Source: a virus
Strand: one strand, 5' to 3'
Length of the DNA stretch: 64,000 nt
IMG/VR virus record: IMGVR_UViG_3300046167_000876
Each line of letters starts with the position of its first letter. Positions within the stretch are counted from its first letter, which is position 1. Positions 6,505 to 43,432 of the stretch are shown here, one piece after another. The notes beneath the pieces were generated by a model that made no database searches, was not told the origin of the DNA, and saw only the letters and a list, made by a program, of their open reading frames with translations. The position numbers and the translations under genes were made by a program.

Positions 6505-7439
6505 TGAAACATTTAGAAGAAACACCTTGGTGGATATGTGATACAGATGATGAAAATTATTGTGCCTACGTTGATACTGATTCTAATTATTTTAATGCTG
6601 AACCTTTACTTTTTAAGTTATATCCTAATTTTGAAGAATTATCTGCAGAAAAAAAAGATGATATTTTAGAAAAGGTAGCAATGAAATATCAAGATGTAAT
6701 TAATGAAGATTATGATAGATTAGCTAAAGAGTGTTTTAATGTAACTGAACATCGACTTGAAATGAAAACTGAATGTGTTATTCGTTCAGCTTATTTTAGA
6801 GCAACTCGTCGTTATGCTCAATGGATTACTAAACAAGAAGGAATTGCTAAAGAATCTTTAGATATTAAAGGTTTGGAATTTATGAAAGCAAATTTTCCAC
6901 CTATCTTAGGATCATTTTTTAATGACATACTTCAACAGGTACTAAAAGGTGAAGAAAAATCTAGTATTTTAGATCAAATTAAAATATTTAAAAAACAAAT
7001 CTTAGATGGTACAATACCACTTACTAAACTAGGTAATCCATCAGCAGTTAAAAAATTAGAAAAATACTCGGGTAAAAATGCTAGAGCAGGAGAAATGTTT
7101 ACAGAAATACTTAAAGGAGCTCCTGCACCTGTACGTGCTACAATTCGTTATAATGATTTATTAAGGTTATGGCAATTAGATAAAAAATATAATTTAATTA
7201 CACAAGCAGATAAAGTTAAATGGATTTATTTAAGAGATAACCCTTATAAAATAGAAGCATTAGCATTTCAAGATTTTGATGTGCCTGAAAAAATTAATGA
7301 TTTTTTAAATGCTTATGCTGATAGACAAAAAGTATTTGATTCAATATTATTAAATAAATTAGAAGGATTCTTTAGTGACTTACAATGGTCATTAGATTTA
7401 AATCCTTATACAAATGCATTAGCATCTTTTGAGATATAA
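6504..7439 (+). CDS. family B DNA polymerase, C-terminal gene (motif C plus thumb)
   Basis: YVDTDS catalytic motif C, RRYA, IKGLE, GAPAPVRATIRYN. Confidence 0.92.
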   Translation: MKHLEETPWWICDTDDENYCAYVDTDSNYFNAEPLLFKLYPNFEELSAEKKDDILEKVAMKYQDVINEDYDRLAKECFNVTEHRLEMKTECVIRSAYFRATRRYAQWITKQEGIAKESLDIKGLEFMKANFPPILGSFFNDILQQVLKGEEKSSILDQIKIFKKQILDGTIPLTKLGNPSAVKKLEKYSGKNARAGEMFTEILKGAPAPVRATIRYNDLLRLWQLDKKYNLITQADKVKWIYLRDNPYKIEALAFQDFDVPEKINDFLNAYADRQKVFDSILLNKLEGFFSDLQWSLDLNPYTNALASFEI

Positions 7440-7458
7440 AATAAACTTCGTATATTAC
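7428..7458 (+). promoter_or_regulatory. Bacteroidota-type -33/-7 promoter; predicted +1 coincides with the ATG of the clamp gene
   Basis: TTTG-N19-TATATTAC with the shared TTCG-TATATT core. Confidence 0.6.
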
Positions 7459-7462
7459 AACT

Positions 7463-8185
7463 ATGGTAAATAAAACAACACTAACATCAGTTATTTCAAA
7501 ATATTATTTAAATGGTTTAAATAATCAAGTAAAATGGCGTATTAAAGATAACCAATTAACTGTTTATGCGGGTGAAAATGGTAGAGTATGTAAAGTAATA
7601 CATAATAATTTTAACCTTGAAGACTCAGAATTAGGTGTATTTGATACTCATAAACTTAGTAAATTACTTTCTATCACCAACGGTGAATTAAATATTTCAC
7701 TTGAAAAAATTAAAGCGGTTTATACTAAAATACATATCGCTGATTTAAACTTTGATTTAACTTATTCATTAGCTGATATTTTAATTTTAGGTAAAAATAC
7801 TTATTATGAAGATCCTGAAGAATTTGAAATACAAATTGATTTAACAAATGAAGATATTAATCATTTAATTAAAGCTAAAAGTGCTTTAGCTGATGTTAAT
7901 AATATGTTAATCACAAGTACCACAGATATGGATGGGACTAATATATGTGAAATTATATTTGGTGATAATACAGGATTTTCAAATAAAATTACTTATCAGC
8001 TTAGAGGTAATATTACTAAAGGAGATATTCAAATTCCTTTTGATTCAGATATATTTAAAGATATTTTAAATGCTAATAAAGATATGGAAAGTGGTACACT
8101 GAAAATATCTGAAGTAGGAATGTTAAAATTAAATTTTTCAACAACAGAAACAGAAAGTGAATACTTTATTGCAAGAAATGAGTAA
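7463..8185 (+). CDS. DNA polymerase sliding clamp (T4 gp45-like)
   Basis: 240 aa; ELGVFDTHKLSKLLS and C-terminal LKISEVGMLKLNF..EYFIA patterns; lies between the polymerase and clamp loader. Confidence 0.75.
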   Translation: MVNKTTLTSVISKYYLNGLNNQVKWRIKDNQLTVYAGENGRVCKVIHNNFNLEDSELGVFDTHKLSKLLSITNGELNISLEKIKAVYTKIHIADLNFDLTYSLADILILGKNTYYEDPEEFEIQIDLTNEDINHLIKAKSALADVNNMLITSTTDMDGTNICEIIFGDNTGFSNKITYQLRGNITKGDIQIPFDSDIFKDILNANKDMESGTLKISEVGMLKLNFSTTETESEYFIARNE

Positions 8186-8205
8186 ACACATATGTATAAT
8201 AGAAC

Positions 8206-8735
8206 ATAAAATGGAGCTAGGGCACGTGTTATGTTTAAATTAAATTAACCGAGAGCTACGGCCTCACAAAACTAAATGATATGAGTACATTATTCAATGA
8301 ACGTACACCGTTCGACTTACTATTCCGTAACTTTTTTAAAGCAGACGGATCTTTTCAACCAACAACGTTTGACAACAAACAACCTCACCCACTAGATATT
8401 TTTTACGACGAAGAAGGGCTTCACTTTGAGATTGCCTGTACTGGTCTAACTAAAAAAGATATTCAACTAGAAATAGATGGAGATCTTTTAAAAATTATCT
8501 ATGATAAACCAAAAGAAGAAGAAGATTATTCTGGTTATATCTATAAAGGATTAGCTAAACGATCTTTTAATCTAGGTTATAAAGTAGCAGCTAAATTTGA
8601 ACTTGAAAGTTTAACTGCTGGAATGAAAGATGGCTTACTTCATATTTTTATTCCAATAGCTGAATCTAAGAAGCCAAAAACAATTAAAATTCAATAATAA
8701 GTTTTATTAAAAAAGCGTGTCCTAGCGCATTTTAT
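8206..8735 (+). repeat. long-range inverted repeat flanking hsp20 (arms 8206-8227 and 8715-8735)
   Basis: ATAAAATG-GA-GCTAGGGCACGT pairs with GCGTGTCCTAGC-G-CATTTTAT (8+12 bp, two G.U pairs). Confidence 0.75.
8281..8697 (+). CDS. small heat shock protein (Hsp20/alpha-crystallin)
   Basis: PLDIF..EIACTGLTKKDIQL..GDLLKI, YIYKGLAKRSF, AGMKDGLLHIFIP, KPKTIKI. Confidence 0.92.
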   Translation: MSTLFNERTPFDLLFRNFFKADGSFQPTTFDNKQPHPLDIFYDEEGLHFEIACTGLTKKDIQLEIDGDLLKIIYDKPKEEEDYSGYIYKGLAKRSFNLGYKVAAKFELESLTAGMKDGLLHIFIPIAESKKPKTIKIQ

Positions 8736-8747
8736 TTCGTATATTAA
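8716..8747 (+). promoter_or_regulatory. -33/-7 promoter (variant -33) overlapping the 3' arm of the hsp20 duplex
   Basis: CGTG-N20-TATATTAA with the TTCGTATATT core. Confidence 0.5.
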
Positions 8748-8767
8748 CGTCTAAATAAATAAGTTAT

Positions 8768-9085
8768 ATGATAAAAAAAAGAAAGTCTATTCAGACTATT
8801 ACCGATCCCTTACTAGAACCATTCTTTATTACTAAGGACGAATACAGTTATACTGTAAAACAAAATGTGACATCTGATGCCAATCATTTTAGGGCTAAAG
8901 GTAAAGCAAAAACTTATGAAAAATCCCTATATTATTATGCTAATTTTGAACAGGCTTTACAAAAAATAGCTAAATTACAAGCTGATATTGAAGATTTTGA
9001 TAGTTTAGATGAATATATTAACAATTATACAAAAATAAGTACTAACATTAAAAATTATACAAATGGAATTAGAAGCATTGTTTGA
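8768..9085 (+). CDS. hypothetical protein
   Basis: ORF with typical codon usage, overlapping the groES start. Confidence 0.7.
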   Translation: MIKKRKSIQTITDPLLEPFFITKDEYSYTVKQNVTSDANHFRAKGKAKTYEKSLYYYANFEQALQKIAKLQADIEDFDSLDEYINNYTKISTNIKNYTNGIRSIV

Positions 9086-9374
9086 TGCCGTTATTGTAAA
9101 ACCCCAAGAAGTTGAAGAAACTACTTATGGGTCAATTATTGTGCCTGATTTAGGTAAAGATAGAAATGAGCATGGAACTGTAGTAGCAGTAGGTCCTGGT
9201 AAACCAACTGTAACTGGAACTTTTTTACCAACAACTGTAAAGGTTGGGGATAAAGTAGTTTTACCAACAGTAGGTTTTACTAAATTACAACATTTAGGAG
9301 ATGAATATTATATTGGCCCCGAAAATCAAATTTTAGCAAAAATTAACCAAACAGAGAAAAAAGAAGATGAATAA
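9063..9374 (+). CDS. groES: co-chaperonin GroES
   Basis: LFDAVIVKP, mobile loop EETTYGSIIVPD, GTVVAVGPG, VKVGDKV. Confidence 0.92.
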   Translation: MELEALFDAVIVKPQEVEETTYGSIIVPDLGKDRNEHGTVVAVGPGKPTVTGTFLPTTVKVGDKVVLPTVGFTKLQHLGDEYYIGPENQILAKINQTEKKEDE

Positions 9375-10986
9375 ACAAGTTACATTAGGTTCAAAAGCTA
9401 GAACCAATTTAGTAAAAGGAATTGATACCTTAGCTGATGCTGTAGTATCAACACTAGGACCAAATGGTCGAAATGTAGTAATAGCAAACGAAATGGGAGT
9501 TCCACAATCAACAAAAGATGGAGTTACAGTTGCTAAATCAATTAAACTAAAAGATCCTGAACAAGAATTAGGAGTACAATTAGTAAAACAAGCTGCAATT
9601 AAAACAGCTGAAAAAGCAGGTGATGGTACAACTACATCTACTTTATTAGCTCGTGAAATGGTAAAAGCAGGATTAAATGCTTTAAATAATAATGAAAATG
9701 CAGTCCAAATTAAACGTGATATTGATTCTACAGTTGAAAAAGTAGTTAACAATCTTAGAAACAATATTTCAGAAGATATCTCAGGAGAAGAACAATTAGA
9801 ACAAATTGCAACTATATCAGCAAATAATGATCCAGAAACCGGAAAATTAATTGCTACTGCTATTGACAAAGTAGGAATGGAAGGAGTTGTTCATATAGAA
9901 GAATCCCGAACAGGAGAAACATATTTGGAAACAGTAGAAGGTATGCAATTTGATAGAGGTTATAAATCCCCGTATTTTGTAACTGATAATAATACAATGA
10001 CTGCTACTTTAGATAATCCACTTATATTAATTGCGGATAGTAAAATTACTCAAGTAAAAGAATTATTACCTATTCTTGAAAGTGTTTCTTCACAAGCAAA
10101 ATCATTACTTATTATAGCAGAAGATATTGATCAAGAAGCATTAGCAACTCTTATTGTTAATAAAATGAGAGGTACTATGAAAGTATGTGCTGTAAAAGCC
10201 CCAGATTTTGGTGATAGACGTAAATTAGTTTTAGAAGATATTGCAGTCACAACAGGTGGTGTAGTATTTGATAAACAAAAAGGAATGAAAATGGATAAAT
10301 TTAGTTGGGAATGGTTTGGAGAAGCTAGAACCGCAACTATAGATAAAGAAAAGACAACACTGGTAGATGGAAAAGGAACAATTGAATCAATTGAAACACG
10401 TATTGAAGAACTACAACAACAAATTGACAAAGCAGACTCACCGTTCGAAATCGAAAAACTCCAAGAAAGACTTGCAAAATTTGTCGGAGGAGTAGCAGTT
10501 ATTCATGTAGGTGGAAATACTGAAACTGAAATGAAAGAGAAAAAAGATAGGGTTGATGATGCTTTACATGCAACAAAAGCCGCTATTGAAGAAGGTATAG
10601 TACCTGGTGGTGGAACAGCATTATTATATGCATCATCAGGATTAGAAGCTAAAACAACAGGAGCAGCTATTGTAATAGAAGCTTGTGCTAAACCCTTTAA
10701 TCAAATTTTAGTTAATGCTGGGTTTGATGAAGTTAAGGGGCAAATTTTAGCTGATAATTTAGTTAACTCTGGTAATGATACTTGGGCTGGATTTAATATT
10801 AAAAATGAAAAAACAGTTAATATGAAAGAAGCTGGTATTATCGATCCAACTAAAGTAGCAAGAACTGCATTGCAAAATGCGGCATCTGTTGCTGGTACAG
10901 TATTACTAACAGAATGTACTGTAGTAAATGAAATTACTGAGGAAAATCCTCAACAACAAGTTGATCCATCAATGATGGGTTATTAA
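9367..10986 (+). CDS. groEL: chaperonin GroEL
   Basis: TLGPNGRNV, TKDGVTVAK, AGDGTTT, GMQFDRGY, KAPDFGDRRK, GIVPGGG, GIIDPTKV. Confidence 0.97.
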   Translation: MNKQVTLGSKARTNLVKGIDTLADAVVSTLGPNGRNVVIANEMGVPQSTKDGVTVAKSIKLKDPEQELGVQLVKQAAIKTAEKAGDGTTTSTLLAREMVKAGLNALNNNENAVQIKRDIDSTVEKVVNNLRNNISEDISGEEQLEQIATISANNDPETGKLIATAIDKVGMEGVVHIEESRTGETYLETVEGMQFDRGYKSPYFVTDNNTMTATLDNPLILIADSKITQVKELLPILESVSSQAKSLLIIAEDIDQEALATLIVNKMRGTMKVCAVKAPDFGDRRKLVLEDIAVTTGGVVFDKQKGMKMDKFSWEWFGEARTATIDKEKTTLVDGKGTIESIETRIEELQQQIDKADSPFEIEKLQERLAKFVGGVAVIHVGGNTETEMKEKKDRVDDALHATKAAIEEGIVPGGGTALLYASSGLEAKTTGAAIVIEACAKPFNQILVNAGFDEVKGQILADNLVNSGNDTWAGFNIKNEKTVNMKEAGIIDPTKVARTALQNAASVAGTVLLTECTVVNEITEENPQQQVDPSMMGY

Positions 10987-11004
10987 CCAATAAATAATAA
11001 AAAA

Positions 11005-11172
11005 ATGACAAAACAAGAAATTTTTGAGATTATTGAAACAAATTTCAATATCTTAGCAGCAGAAAACGATGGAACTACTAAGGCAAGTCAAGCACGAGCT
11101 AGAAAAGCAGCCCAAGCTATTAAACGAGTAATCACAGATTATAAAAAAGCATCTGTGGCTGAGTCAAAATAG
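11005..11172 (+). CDS. histone H1-like (Hc1 family) protein, 55 aa, not in ORF track
   Basis: MTKQEIFE...TTKASQARARKAAQAIKRVITDYKKASVAESK resembles the KAA.TRARK...K.FRK.S pattern of Bacteroidota Hc1-like proteins. Confidence 0.7.
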   Translation: MTKQEIFEIIETNFNILAAENDGTTKASQARARKAAQAIKRVITDYKKASVAESK

Positions 11173-11183
11173 TTTCGTATATT

Positions 11184-11453
11184 ATGGCTACAAAGATTGA
11201 AGAAAAAAATATCCTAATCGCTCGGAGAGTTCCTCCGGGCGACAAATGGAGATTAGTTGCAAATGAACCAGATGGTCCTGTACATAAAACTTTAACTGAT
11301 GCCTTAGAAGCATACATGGTCAAAACAGGATTTAAAGGTCACTACAGGTTAGAACCACTTAAAAGTAGTTTATATGCAATTGATTCTAAAGAAACAGAAG
11401 TAATACCAGAACCAGAAAAGAAATATTCAATATATGGCGAATACGGAGAATAG
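11184..11453 (+). CDS. hypothetical protein (ARRVPPGDKW motif)
   Basis: ORF overlapping the clamp loader start. Confidence 0.7.
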   Translation: MATKIEEKNILIARRVPPGDKWRLVANEPDGPVHKTLTDALEAYMVKTGFKGHYRLEPLKSSLYAIDSKETEVIPEPEKKYSIYGEYGE

Positions 11454-29735: not shown

Positions 29736-30176
29736 ATGTTATACGAATTTAAAAATTATAATAAACACGGTAATGTAAGGACAAGGATAGTACCTGGTCC
29801 CAAGGGTAAAGCATTTAGTGTTAATCCAAAAGGTTTAGGTAATTATATTGGTGTTAGAGTATTCAAATATGAATATAAACATGAACTATTACCTCCAAGT
29901 TTATTAAGTATAGGTGGTAAAAGATATATTGTTCCTACTTGGCAAGAAGTACTACCAGAAACTGAATTGAGTGATATAAAATGGATCAAACCAAAACCAA
30001 AGGTTAAACAAGAACCAATTATTGAGACCCATATTAGCAGTAGCAACGCAAATAAAACGTATAAAACAATATACTACCCAGAATCAGGTAAATTCCATTG
30101 CGATTGTCCAGGTAGATGGAGAGCGTTTGATAACCGTTGTAAACACATAAAATCATTAGAAAAAAAAGTAAAGTAA
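29736..30176 (+). CDS. SWIM zinc finger protein
   Basis: C-terminal CDC...CKH. Confidence 0.7.
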   Translation: MLYEFKNYNKHGNVRTRIVPGPKGKAFSVNPKGLGNYIGVRVFKYEYKHELLPPSLLSIGGKRYIVPTWQEVLPETELSDIKWIKPKPKVKQEPIIETHISSSNANKTYKTIYYPESGKFHCDCPGRWRAFDNRCKHIKSLEKKVK

Positions 30177-30263
30177 TGCGCGGGAAATTTTGATACCCGG
30201 GCTAGGGTTCGTATATTTACCACGTTGATGCAGTTAAGCATCACGTTAAAACCAATAAGAGTT
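30169..30263 (+). promoter_or_regulatory. repeated promoter/5'-hairpin cassette, copy 1
   Basis: AAAGTAATGCGCGGG, TTTG-N19-TATATTTA, hairpin TGATGC-AGTTAA-GCATCA, then GAGTT-ATG. Confidence 0.8.
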
Positions 30264-32898: not shown

Positions 32899-32909
32899 AT
32901 ATGTAAAAA

Positions 32910-32984
32910 TTTGGTTACCTGGGATATCTTTCGTATATTTACCCTGTTGATAATTAAGTCAACGCATTAAATAGAGGTTATATT
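32910..32984 (+). promoter_or_regulatory. repeated promoter/5'-hairpin cassette, copy 2
   Basis: TTTG-N20-TATATTTA, hairpin GTTGAT-AATTAA-GTCAAC. Confidence 0.8.
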
Positions 32985-33506: not shown

Positions 33507-33644
33507 ATGAAAAAAGGAGATTGGATATTATATAATAATAAACGCAAAAAGTGCTTTGGTATACACCATAATGGTAATATTCTAATTAAGATGAATGGTA
33601 CTATAGTTCAAGTACATAAAGAAAAAATAAGAACTCCCGCGTAA
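33507..33644 (+). CDS. hypothetical protein (45 aa)
   Basis: MKKGDWILY... start chosen directly after the previous stop. Confidence 0.55.
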   Translation: MKKGDWILYNNKRKKCFGIHHNGNILIKMNGTIVQVHKEKIRTPA

Positions 33645-33647
33645 AAA

Positions 33648-33722
33648 TTTGGTTACCCGGGCTAGAGTTCGTATATTTACCACGTTGATGCAGTTAAGCA
33701 CAACATTAAATTAATTAAGGTT
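33648..33722 (+). promoter_or_regulatory. repeated promoter/5'-hairpin cassette, copy 3
   Basis: TTTG-N20-TATATTTA; 33654-33700 matches 30194-30240 at 46 of 47 bases; hairpin GTTG(A)TGC-AGTTAA-GCACAAC. Confidence 0.85.
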
Positions 33723-37484: not shown

Positions 37485-38109
37485 CAATTTGGATAAGTAA
37501 AAAAATAATTGTATATTATGATTAATATAGGTAAAGAATGGCGTTGGATGGATGATGAGTTGTTAGAACAAGGTGTAGATGATTTTATATCATATTCAAC
37601 AGGTAGTGGAGCAGTAGAAGATTAGTTATGAGAAAAAAAAGAGAATATAGAGGTTGTGAATGGGAAAGTCCAATATTTAGAGAAATAATGAGAGAAAAAT
37701 GGGCTAAAGAAGGTAAAACGAAAATAAACGAATATAAAACAAAAAGAGGCAAACGAAGCTCTTTATAACACCACACAATAACCTAATACGTATATACAAA
37801 CATGAGTAAATCTATAAATAACTTAATAAAGATATTAGAACAAGATATCAAATTAAATGATGATCAACCACTTACTACTAAAAAATTAAAACGTATATTG
37901 GAGGTAGCAGTAGAAAATAAATCAGAATAATATGTTGGTAGGAGTAGGTATAGCAATATTTATTGTAGTTTGGATTTGGATAATTTGGGAACTTTATACT
38001 GCTCCACTTATTGATGATGTTGGAAATATTGATGTTACAGATGTTGACATTGAAGATGACTTGTGGGATAAGAACCACATTGAAGATATGGATTAAAAAA
38101 TAAATTAAA

Positions 38110-39004: not shown

Positions 39005-39594
39005 CATGAGTAAAAACAGTCACAAAGCGTTGTACGAGCAGTTGATGCAATGGTTACCAACGTTGAAAACTAAACGTAAAAAACCGGTTAAACGAGGCAA
39101 TACACAACCTAGGTTTATCGATTATAATGTTAAAATTAAAAATGGATCAAATGCGAGACGATAATAAACAATTGTATAAACAAATTGGTAGTATGTTTGG
39201 GGATCTTGTAATGGCCTTGGTTGTTGGTATGTTAGGAGTGGTTGCTTTGTTTGGAATCGTGAGTGCAATATGGAATTTGATTGCATAAGTGTGACAAACC
39301 ATATACAAAGTATGGAATATGGATATTGAGATATTTAAACATCCGTATATTTGGTTATAGTAGGTGACAAATAGTTAATGTGTTGTGTGGGTTGAGATGA
39401 AGGTGGTGTTAACCCATTCACATAGGCAACCACGCCTCTTCGACTTACCTTAAAGTATATACGTCGAATTGCATTATCCGCAATTGGCACACGTGTACAT
39501 TCTTTTTATTCACAATGGCCTGGCATTAAAAATGAGGATATGACAAAGCCAAATACATTTGTAATAAGGCATGAACACATTGTTCACGAATAAA

Positions 39595-39667
39595 TTTGGA
39601 TACACGGGATAGAGTTCGTATATTTACCATGTTGAGCAATTAAGCATCAGCAATAAATAAAGGTTAT
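39595..39667 (+). promoter_or_regulatory. repeated promoter/5'-hairpin cassette, copy 4
   Basis: TTTG-N20-TATATTTA, hairpin GTTGAGC-AATTAA-GC(A)TCAGC. Confidence 0.8.
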
Positions 39668-42914: not shown

Positions 42915-43008
42915 AAGTAATGCGCAGGAGGTTTGGCTACCCAGGATATCATTCGTATATTCACCATGTTGTGATAATGAAGTTACAGCACTAAAAACAA
43001 TAAAGGTT
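42913..43008 (+). promoter_or_regulatory. repeated promoter/5'-hairpin cassette, copy 5
   Basis: AAAAGTAATGCGCAGG, TTTG-N20-TATATTCA, hairpin GTTGTGAT-AATGAA-GTTACAGC. Confidence 0.8.
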
Positions 43009-43353: not shown

Positions 43354-43432
43354 AAGTAATGCACGGGAAGCTTGGCTTCCCGGGCTATCTTTCGTATATT
43401 CAAGTATATTAATAATTAAATAAATCAAAGTT
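43352..43432 (+). promoter_or_regulatory. repeated promoter cassette, copy 6 (no GTTG hairpin)
   Basis: AAAAGTAATGCACGGG, CTTG-N20-TATATTCA, CCCGGG in the spacer. Confidence 0.75.

Follow-up and report, generated by a model that had tools for sequence, protein, structure and literature searches.

The leader and trailer of a phage hsp20 gene carry two complementary arms, and in more than 100 distinct relatives from IMG/VR the pairing between these arms is conserved and the arms covary. In the predicted fold the arms enclose the hsp20 cistron in a loop of about 490 nt. We give a probability of roughly 55% to the reading that the helix is an end-to-end clamp, defining and protecting the ends of the hsp20 message within a terminator-less region that is probably polycistronic.

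Genomic setting

The DNA analysed, referred to here as the window, is a 64,000-nt stretch of the IMG/VR record IMGVR_UViG_3300046167_000876. It has a G+C content of 29% and carries nearly all of its genes on the plus strand. The features in and around hsp20 are listed in Table 1. The clamp loader encoded in the same neighbourhood showed 36 to 40% identity to its counterparts in Microcystis phage Mel-JY01, Pelagibacter phage HTVC008M, and cyanomyoviruses, and the source phage was therefore regarded as an uncultivated marine T4-like myovirus. Protein identity to cultured relatives was only 27 to 40%, and a search of the INPHARED phages with the window at the DNA level gave no match. Virioplankton contigs with a small heat-shock gene ahead of groES-groEL are on record, in passages that describe no RNA structure (PMC5649160). 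A full-text literature search likewise found no description of an hsp20 leader-trailer helix.

Table 1. Features of the hsp20 region, with window coordinates
Feature	Position	Strand	Remarks
Family B polymerase			C-terminal half of split gene; near hsp20
240-aa gene			No family match; near hsp20
Promoter-like -10 motif TGTATAAT	8193-8200	+	Just before 5' arm; candidate promoter
5' arm	8202-8227	+	In MFE and centroid folds of 8195-8750; covaries with 3' arm in relatives
Helix III	8202-8204 with 8736-8738	+	3 more pairs beyond bulged C8205
Hairpin 1	8203-8235	+	GC-rich core of 5' arm in loop; shares 8203-8209 with long-range helix
Helix II	8206-8213 with 8728-8735	+	8 bp
Internal loop	G8214, A8215 opposite G8727	+	Separates helices I and II
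Helix I	8216-8227 with 8715-8726	+	12 bp
Hairpin 2	8251-8265	+	GAG-A-GC UACG GC-CUC; bulged A8254, tetraloop; ends 16 nt before start codon
hsp20 CDS	8281-8697	+	138 aa; Pfam HSP20, E value of 1.2e-11
3' arm	8715-8738	+	G8727 unpaired; nearly invariant within closest family
Promoter-like motif CGTATATT of next unit (orf105-groES-groEL)	8738-8745	+	Strand-biased, 31 vs 8
orf105	8768-9085	+	105 aa; conserved downstream neighbour, outside bracket; weak PHROG match only
groES and groEL			Same neighbourhood; unit orf105-groES-groEL
gp44-type clamp loader			Same neighbourhood as groES/groEL

Leader-trailer helix in the window

An initial annotation of this DNA had proposed that the segment at 8206-8227 (ATAAAATGGAGCTAGGGCACGT) is complementary to that at 8715-8735 (GCGTGTCCTAGCGCATTTTAT), forming a duplex of 20 bp with two G.U pairs. 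Both statements held when checked on the sequence: the duplex consists of 12 and 8 bp around a small internal loop, and the two wobbles (G8222.U8720 and U8227.G8715) lie in helix I. With helix III included, the helix spans 8202-8227 and 8715-8738 and comprises 23 bp, two of them G.U. The MFE and centroid folds of 8195-8750 both contained this long-range helix, the whole fold having a z score of -4.8, and in partition function calculations on the whole message its pairing probability was at least 0.97 from 10 to 55°C.

The 11-mer core was present in the window only at the two arms (0.12 occurrences expected; 0 of 100 shuffles had two), and shuffling of the trailer gave z = -3.5 for leader-trailer pairing. 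By energy alone, 6 of 1,814 other 70-nt segments bound the leader at least equally well. The window sequence by itself was thus suggestive of the pairing and provided modest evidence for it; that the pairing is more than chance was judged from the comparative data described below, not from the single sequence.

When the intergenic pieces of the window were compared in all pairs, no second convincing gene-bracketing helix emerged, and an Rfam search of 7400-11400 with E values up to 5 returned nothing relevant. An ungapped complementarity scoring equal to the hsp20 core was noted elsewhere, between 37605-37616 (AGTGGAGCAGTA) and a site about 300 nt downstream, within 37960-38079. This pair sits in a 780-nt stretch without long ORFs.

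Conservation and covariation in relatives

About 270 loci came from five IMG/VR scans in which the hsp20 protein queries were progressively more divergent. The first three scans provided 101 distinct leader/trailer flank pairs, falling into about 9 arm families, and the leader-trailer duplex was present in all 101 (-19.6 to -41.4 kcal/mol). With the two further scans there were about 16 arm families of different sequence, and the new families also kept the duplex. Examples of the arms are GCTAGGGCAC/GTGTCCTAGC, GACCTAAGGGCGC/GCGCCCTTTAGGTT, CTTTAGGGAGC/GCTCCCTAAAG, AAGGCGCGCT/AGCGCGCCTT, and CACTGCGGGTTGG/CCAGCCCGCAGTG. In the 21 representatives measured, the quasi-continuous helix was 17 to 37 bp long. 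Most families have a GC-rich inner half and an AU-rich outer half, and most keep the central bulge between helices I and II, the length of which varies among relatives. In three complete relatives of 158 to 164 kb, the core motif occurred exactly twice, as the two arms.

Cognate arms paired with a mean energy of -30.7 kcal/mol, compared with -18.3 ± 5.2 kcal/mol for swaps between families. Within the closest family, the AU-rich outer helix scored -5.10 with its own partner and -3.67 ± 0.18 with permuted partners (0 of 300 permutations). Compensatory double changes were observed, for example from U-A to C-G in L066 (GCCAGGG/CCTGGC) and from G-C to A-U in L072 (GAGC/GCTC). In a MAFFT alignment (A1), helix I was 85% paired, individual positions switching between G-C, G.U, and A-U, and the whole structure was 67% paired vs 34 to 50% in slid controls. 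Since the arms of different families are out of register in this alignment, column-wise covariation is diluted in it, and we therefore relied on the alignment-free swap tests. Conservation and covariation of the arms in relatives, on which the initial annotation had made its proposal depend, were thus found by swap and permutation tests and by compensatory changes. That annotation had also pointed to a repeat, GAGCTA(G/C)GGC, in the leader. The repeat is present (GAGCTAGGGC at 8214 and GAGCTACGGC at 8253) but is not conserved as a repeat in relatives, and for this reason it is probably a coincidence.

Strand asymmetry of the pairing

The initial annotation had noted that the two G.U pairs work only as plus-strand RNA. 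Of the 101 sequences, 87 had a plus-strand duplex more stable than the minus-strand one; the same held for 28 of 38 representatives and for 12 of 16 families, the other 4 families favouring the minus strand. When medians of the families, which were defined by eye for this test, were compared, the Wilcoxon test gave p = 0.0034 and the sign test p = 0.08. A loose count of distinct mismatches gave 53 plus-type vs 20 minus-type wobbles, whereas a strict count, restricted to isolated mismatches in distinct contexts with three matches on either side, gave 5 of each type. The strand argument rests mainly on the energy comparison. The strand signal is therefore real on average, but it is not clean and is less robust than the swap test.

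These data bear on the possibility that the element acts in DNA, the arms being opposite-orientation sites for a protein that controls the two promoter-like motifs of the chaperone genes, and changing together because the protein changes. Such sites would be in keeping with the promoter-like motif that each arm abuts, with the near-invariance of the 3' arm in the closest family, and with the imperfect strand asymmetry. The two copies, however, differ by bulges of 1 to 5 nt, and bulges of variable length are better accommodated by RNA than by a protein site. The complementarity moreover extends over 17 to 37 positions and includes AU-rich parts that are wholly different between families, the arms are not palindromes, and the motif is found nowhere else in the three complete genomes. 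Where the copies differ, it is the plus-strand duplex that is more stable on average, as expected from wobble pairs. We consider protein-binding sites in the DNA quite improbable as an explanation of the arms, and the sequence comparisons support the view that the conserved pairing would fit plus-strand RNA better than DNA. For the near-invariance of the 3' arm in the closest family taken singly, a DNA-level role at the next promoter could be an equally good explanation; this near-invariance also fits a double constraint, from RNA pairing and from the next promoter.

Leader hairpins and the start region

The local stem that had been set against the long-range pairing (8203-8209 with 8229-8235) does exist (-9.2 kcal/mol, z = -3.2), and hairpin 1 has covarying pairs in the closest family (C-G/U-A/A-U and U-A/C-G). 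No stable counterpart was found in the large L080 family. In partition function calculations on the complete message, hairpin 1 had a probability of about 0 from 10 to 65°C, while helices I and II of the long-range pairing had probabilities of 0.87 to 0.99 over the same range. Because the long-range helix holds throughout this range and the local stem does not, hairpin 1 is read as probably a transient co-transcriptional fold that would be displaced once the 3' arm exists.

Hairpin 2 was predicted with an energy of -6.1 kcal/mol and a probability of 0.99 at 37°C, and it covaries at two pairs (G-C/U-A/A-U at one and A-U/G-U/G-C at the other). The 16 A-rich nucleotides between this hairpin and the AUG were unpaired in both the MFE and the centroid folds, and the start is therefore open in the closed form. 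From the end of the 5' arm to the AUG there are 53 nt in the window and 41 to 60 nt (usually 50 to 55) in 21 of 21 representatives.

The initial annotation had suggested a switch or thermosensor, in which the local hairpin and the long-range helix would alternate and thereby tune hsp20 expression. The appeal of this suggestion lies in the heat-shock protein that the gene encodes and in the two folds, which share 8203-8209 and both covary in the closest family. The in silico probabilities nevertheless leave the long-range helix paired, and the local stem absent, over the full temperature range. The start region is unpaired and lies outside both folds, a stable local hairpin is missing from the L080 family, and the arms can be 200 nt farther apart with no loss of pairing. 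RNA thermometers of the ROSE and fourU kinds place a labile helix over the Shine-Dalgarno sequence or AUG; no such helix was found here, the long-range helix being stable to 65°C. Thermosensing and an equilibrium switch are therefore not supported and appear very improbable.

Two further observations concern this part of the message. The sequence around the start codon (8273-8291, AAATGATATGAGTACATTA) is almost invariant in 101 relatives and contains a two-codon mini-ORF, ATG-ATA-TGA, that overlaps the hsp20 ATG. In S-CRM01 (L169:1400-1470), the hsp20 leader has a UUCG-capped hairpin (AGTGGTTGCC TTCG GGGACCACT) after a late-type motif, CTATAAATA. A leader hairpin may thus be a shared trait of phage hsp20 genes, including those that lack the long-range helix.

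Promoter-like motifs and terminators

The promoter-like motif just before the 5' arm was kept upstream of hsp20 in relatives, even in those with a different upstream gene. The motif family (C/T)GTATA(A/T)T is strand-biased in the window and often stands in front of genes, and a generic sigma-70 scan of the AT-rich window was uninformative (13 sites vs 11.7 expected). Should hsp20 be transcribed from the motif at 8193-8200, its RNA may begin within the 5' arm and be without the outer part of that arm, which would count against the clamp reading. The overlap of the 3' arm with the next promoter, also part of the initial annotation, was borne out in that the 3' arm occupies the would-be -35 region and spacer of the CGTATATT motif, itself a putative promoter. 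The 3' arm of the L080 family includes TTGGTT, a hexamer that forms the -35-like element of other promoter-like units in the window and by its sequence would tie the 3' arm to the next promoter-like motif.

Cassettes consisting of a terminator stem-loop and an early promoter (PeSL) are known in T4-type phages (PMC2839356, PMC4122927). Repeated PeSL-like units were noted in the window at 30175-30250, 32905-32965, 33630-33705, 39585-39650, 42915-42990, and 43355-43400. In these units a short GC stem overlaps a TTGG(T/A/C)TA -35-like hexamer and is followed by TTCGTATATT; in most of them a hairpin (of the ACGTTGATGC...GCATCACGT type) comes next, at what would be the extreme 5' end of the transcript.

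No terminator-like site was found after the hsp20 stop codon in the window, and the 3' arm alone was not significant as a local hairpin or intrinsic terminator (-5.8 kcal/mol, z = -1.0). An ordinary GC-rich terminator hairpin follows hsp20 in HTVC008M (Pelagibacter), S-CRM01 (Synechococcus), and distant IMG/VR relatives such as L167 and L275; leader-trailer pairing was absent from these. As these distant relatives have the terminator and not the pairing, the long-range helix is lineage-specific and stands at the terminator's place.

The helix might accordingly be thought of as a split terminator or insulator, in which helix I and a U-rich tail, with the whole gene in the loop, would stop or mark read-through shortly ahead of the next promoter. 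In a sib-like variant of this idea, the full helix would be present only in read-through transcripts and would decide their fate. The 3' arm is indeed placed relative to TTCGTATATT like the short GC stems of the window's promoter/stem units, hsp20 has no local terminator after it where the distant relatives have one, and the window tail after helix I is U-rich (CAUUUUAUUUC). This U-richness, however, was not kept in other families, and the U residues in question are themselves paired in helix II. Halves lying 490 to 700 nt apart would also be kinetically demanding, and we know of no precedent for termination by a helix so divided, which counts against the idea. We regard a split terminator or insulator as unlikely.

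A related possibility, in our estimation fairly unlikely, is that hsp20 has split a promoter-proximal stem-loop of the PeSL kind, which would still work over 500 to 700 nt with the gene in its loop. As in PeSL cassettes, the 3' arm lies directly before a promoter-like motif, and the window contains several local PeSL-like units. A difference is that the partner strand is not a few bases away but 490 nt upstream, across a gene, and no adjacent local stem-loop was found at the 3' arm. Possible roles for such a cassette are those of a long-range terminator or insulator and of a sib-like device, and the fate of the message would then depend on the promoter used. If the device is sib-like, the full RNase III helix would be confined to read-through transcripts, and the gene's own promoter would yield messages with no more than the protective inner clamp.

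Gene content of the bracketed unit

At three loci (L226, L227, and L232), the hsp20 stop codon and the 3' arm are separated by a 69-aa membrane-like ORF. The 3' arm is there about 220 nt past the stop, and pairing is kept at -38 to -41 kcal/mol. The close relative L224 is without this ORF and has its 3' arm 6 nt after the stop. Because the arms were kept despite the inserted ORF, they appear as the borders of the unit and are not bound to a fixed distance from the stop codon. The ORF itself (MKVTKLRS...WRIVGTLDT...) is found at L226:1003-1270, L227:835-1100, and L232:985-1250, where the helix brackets two genes. A role of the helix in ribosome recycling or re-initiation was considered and rejected, as the distance from stop codon to 3' arm varies from 2 to 18 nt and is about 220 nt with a gene between.

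The ORF upstream of hsp20 differed in 42 of 130 loci, and the arms stayed with hsp20 in all contexts. The junction just before the hsp20 promoter-like motif (8186-8200, and the same place in L001-L167) is a hot spot of indels or recombination. A variable upstream junction, together with an inverted repeat flanking a single accessory gene, is what might be expected if the arms were the terminal inverted repeats of a mobile or invertible hsp20 cassette. An orf105 homologue was nevertheless present downstream in 146 of 150 loci, with hsp20 in the same place and orientation relative to orf105-groES, and no recombinase was found among the hsp20 neighbours. The 69-aa ORF was inserted inside the repeat, not together with it, and each of the three complete genomes has only two copies of the motif and no second copy of the cassette. 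Neither cassettes in opposite orientations nor copies at unrelated sites flanked by target duplications were seen. Mobility of the cassette is hardly credible on these grounds.

Discussion

We favour the clamp reading, in which the helix holds the two ends of the hsp20 message together. In the scheme that we infer, both arms would be co-transcribed, and folding, nuclease action, and stabilisation would proceed as follows. The nascent 5' arm would be held in the local hairpin, with its GC-rich core displayed in the loop. The 3' arm, on emerging, would pair with this core and oust the local stem, closing the cistron in the plus-strand transcript. The resulting helix of about 23 bp would replace the terminator hairpin of the distant phages, blocking 3' exonucleases and hiding the 5' end. 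When transcription reads through, the host RNase III would probably find its substrate in the central bulge and the AU-rich outer half, and cleavage would leave the GC-rich inner 12 bp as a clamp, with the ends still held together. RNase III trimming of read-through transcripts is plausible by analogy because the helix is about two turns long, has a central bulge, and is divided into a GC-rich inner and an AU-rich outer half. Stems cut by RNase III are about 20 bp or longer; the helix has 23 bp in the window and 17 to 37 bp in the representatives. An RNase III gene was not found in the three complete relatives with a family that matches 8 of 14 control bacteria.

Several known messages offer comparisons. 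Long-range stems between 5' and 3' UTRs stabilise or regulate the hok, hbs, and icaR mRNAs (PMC9841398, PMC5737220, PMC3868564). In hok of plasmid R1, a long-distance 5'-3' UTR stem (tac/fbi) stabilises the full-length message, and in the nascent mRNA the 5' element forms a short-lived local hairpin with the sequence that immediately follows it (PMC9841398). The long-distance UTR stem of the window matches this arrangement, and hairpin 1, which covaries in the window's family but has no stable counterpart in the L080 family, may be the equivalent of the short-lived hairpin. The closed form of hok, however, hides the Shine-Dalgarno sequence and blocks translation and antisense binding, whereas in the predicted fold of the window the ribosome binding site is not hidden and the start is unpaired. 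The window also differs in having no toxin and no antisense RNA, and its helix is longer. In Bacillus subtilis hbs, a 14-bp UTR pairing modulates endonuclease access and so mRNA stability (PMC5737220). The likeness to the window lies in the long-range 5'/3'-UTR pairing, the difference in the mapped RNase Y site that overlaps the hbs pairing and in the strong Shine-Dalgarno sequence to which the hbs system is tied, the window helix having no mapped site. The icaR pairing of Staphylococcus aureus covers the Shine-Dalgarno sequence and blocks initiation, whereas the 5' arm of the window ends 53 nt before the AUG. Pairing of the 3' UTR with the Shine-Dalgarno sequence was not found in any of the 21 representatives.

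The leader-trailer stems of rRNA operons and the RNase III sites of T7 early mRNA are two-turn imperfect helices. The window helix resembles them in its length of about two turns, in its central imperfection, and in bracketing RNA within a longer transcript. The T7 sites, however, are local hairpins between genes, and the window helix closes around a whole cistron. In Escherichia coli, double-cleavage targets of RNase III have their two sites 16 to 1,080 nt apart (PMC6212723). All of these RNase III targets differ from the window in that its cargo is a single phage protein-coding cistron and its cleavage is putative.

For annotation, these results carry the warning that the hsp20 trailer in this lineage is terminator-less only when long-range partners are ignored. 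Few worked examples of long-range 5'-3' pairing in bacterial or phage messages are known to us (hok, hbs, icaR, and the rRNA-type stems). With more than 100 distinct sequences from uncultivated phages and about 16 arm families, the hsp20 helix provides an unusually rich record of natural mutagenesis. It offers a ready model for the effects that a clamp may have on a prokaryotic mRNA, namely on its stability, its processing, its insulation from neighbouring cistrons, and its co-transcriptional refolding, and it also illustrates how phages may tune their supply of chaperones.
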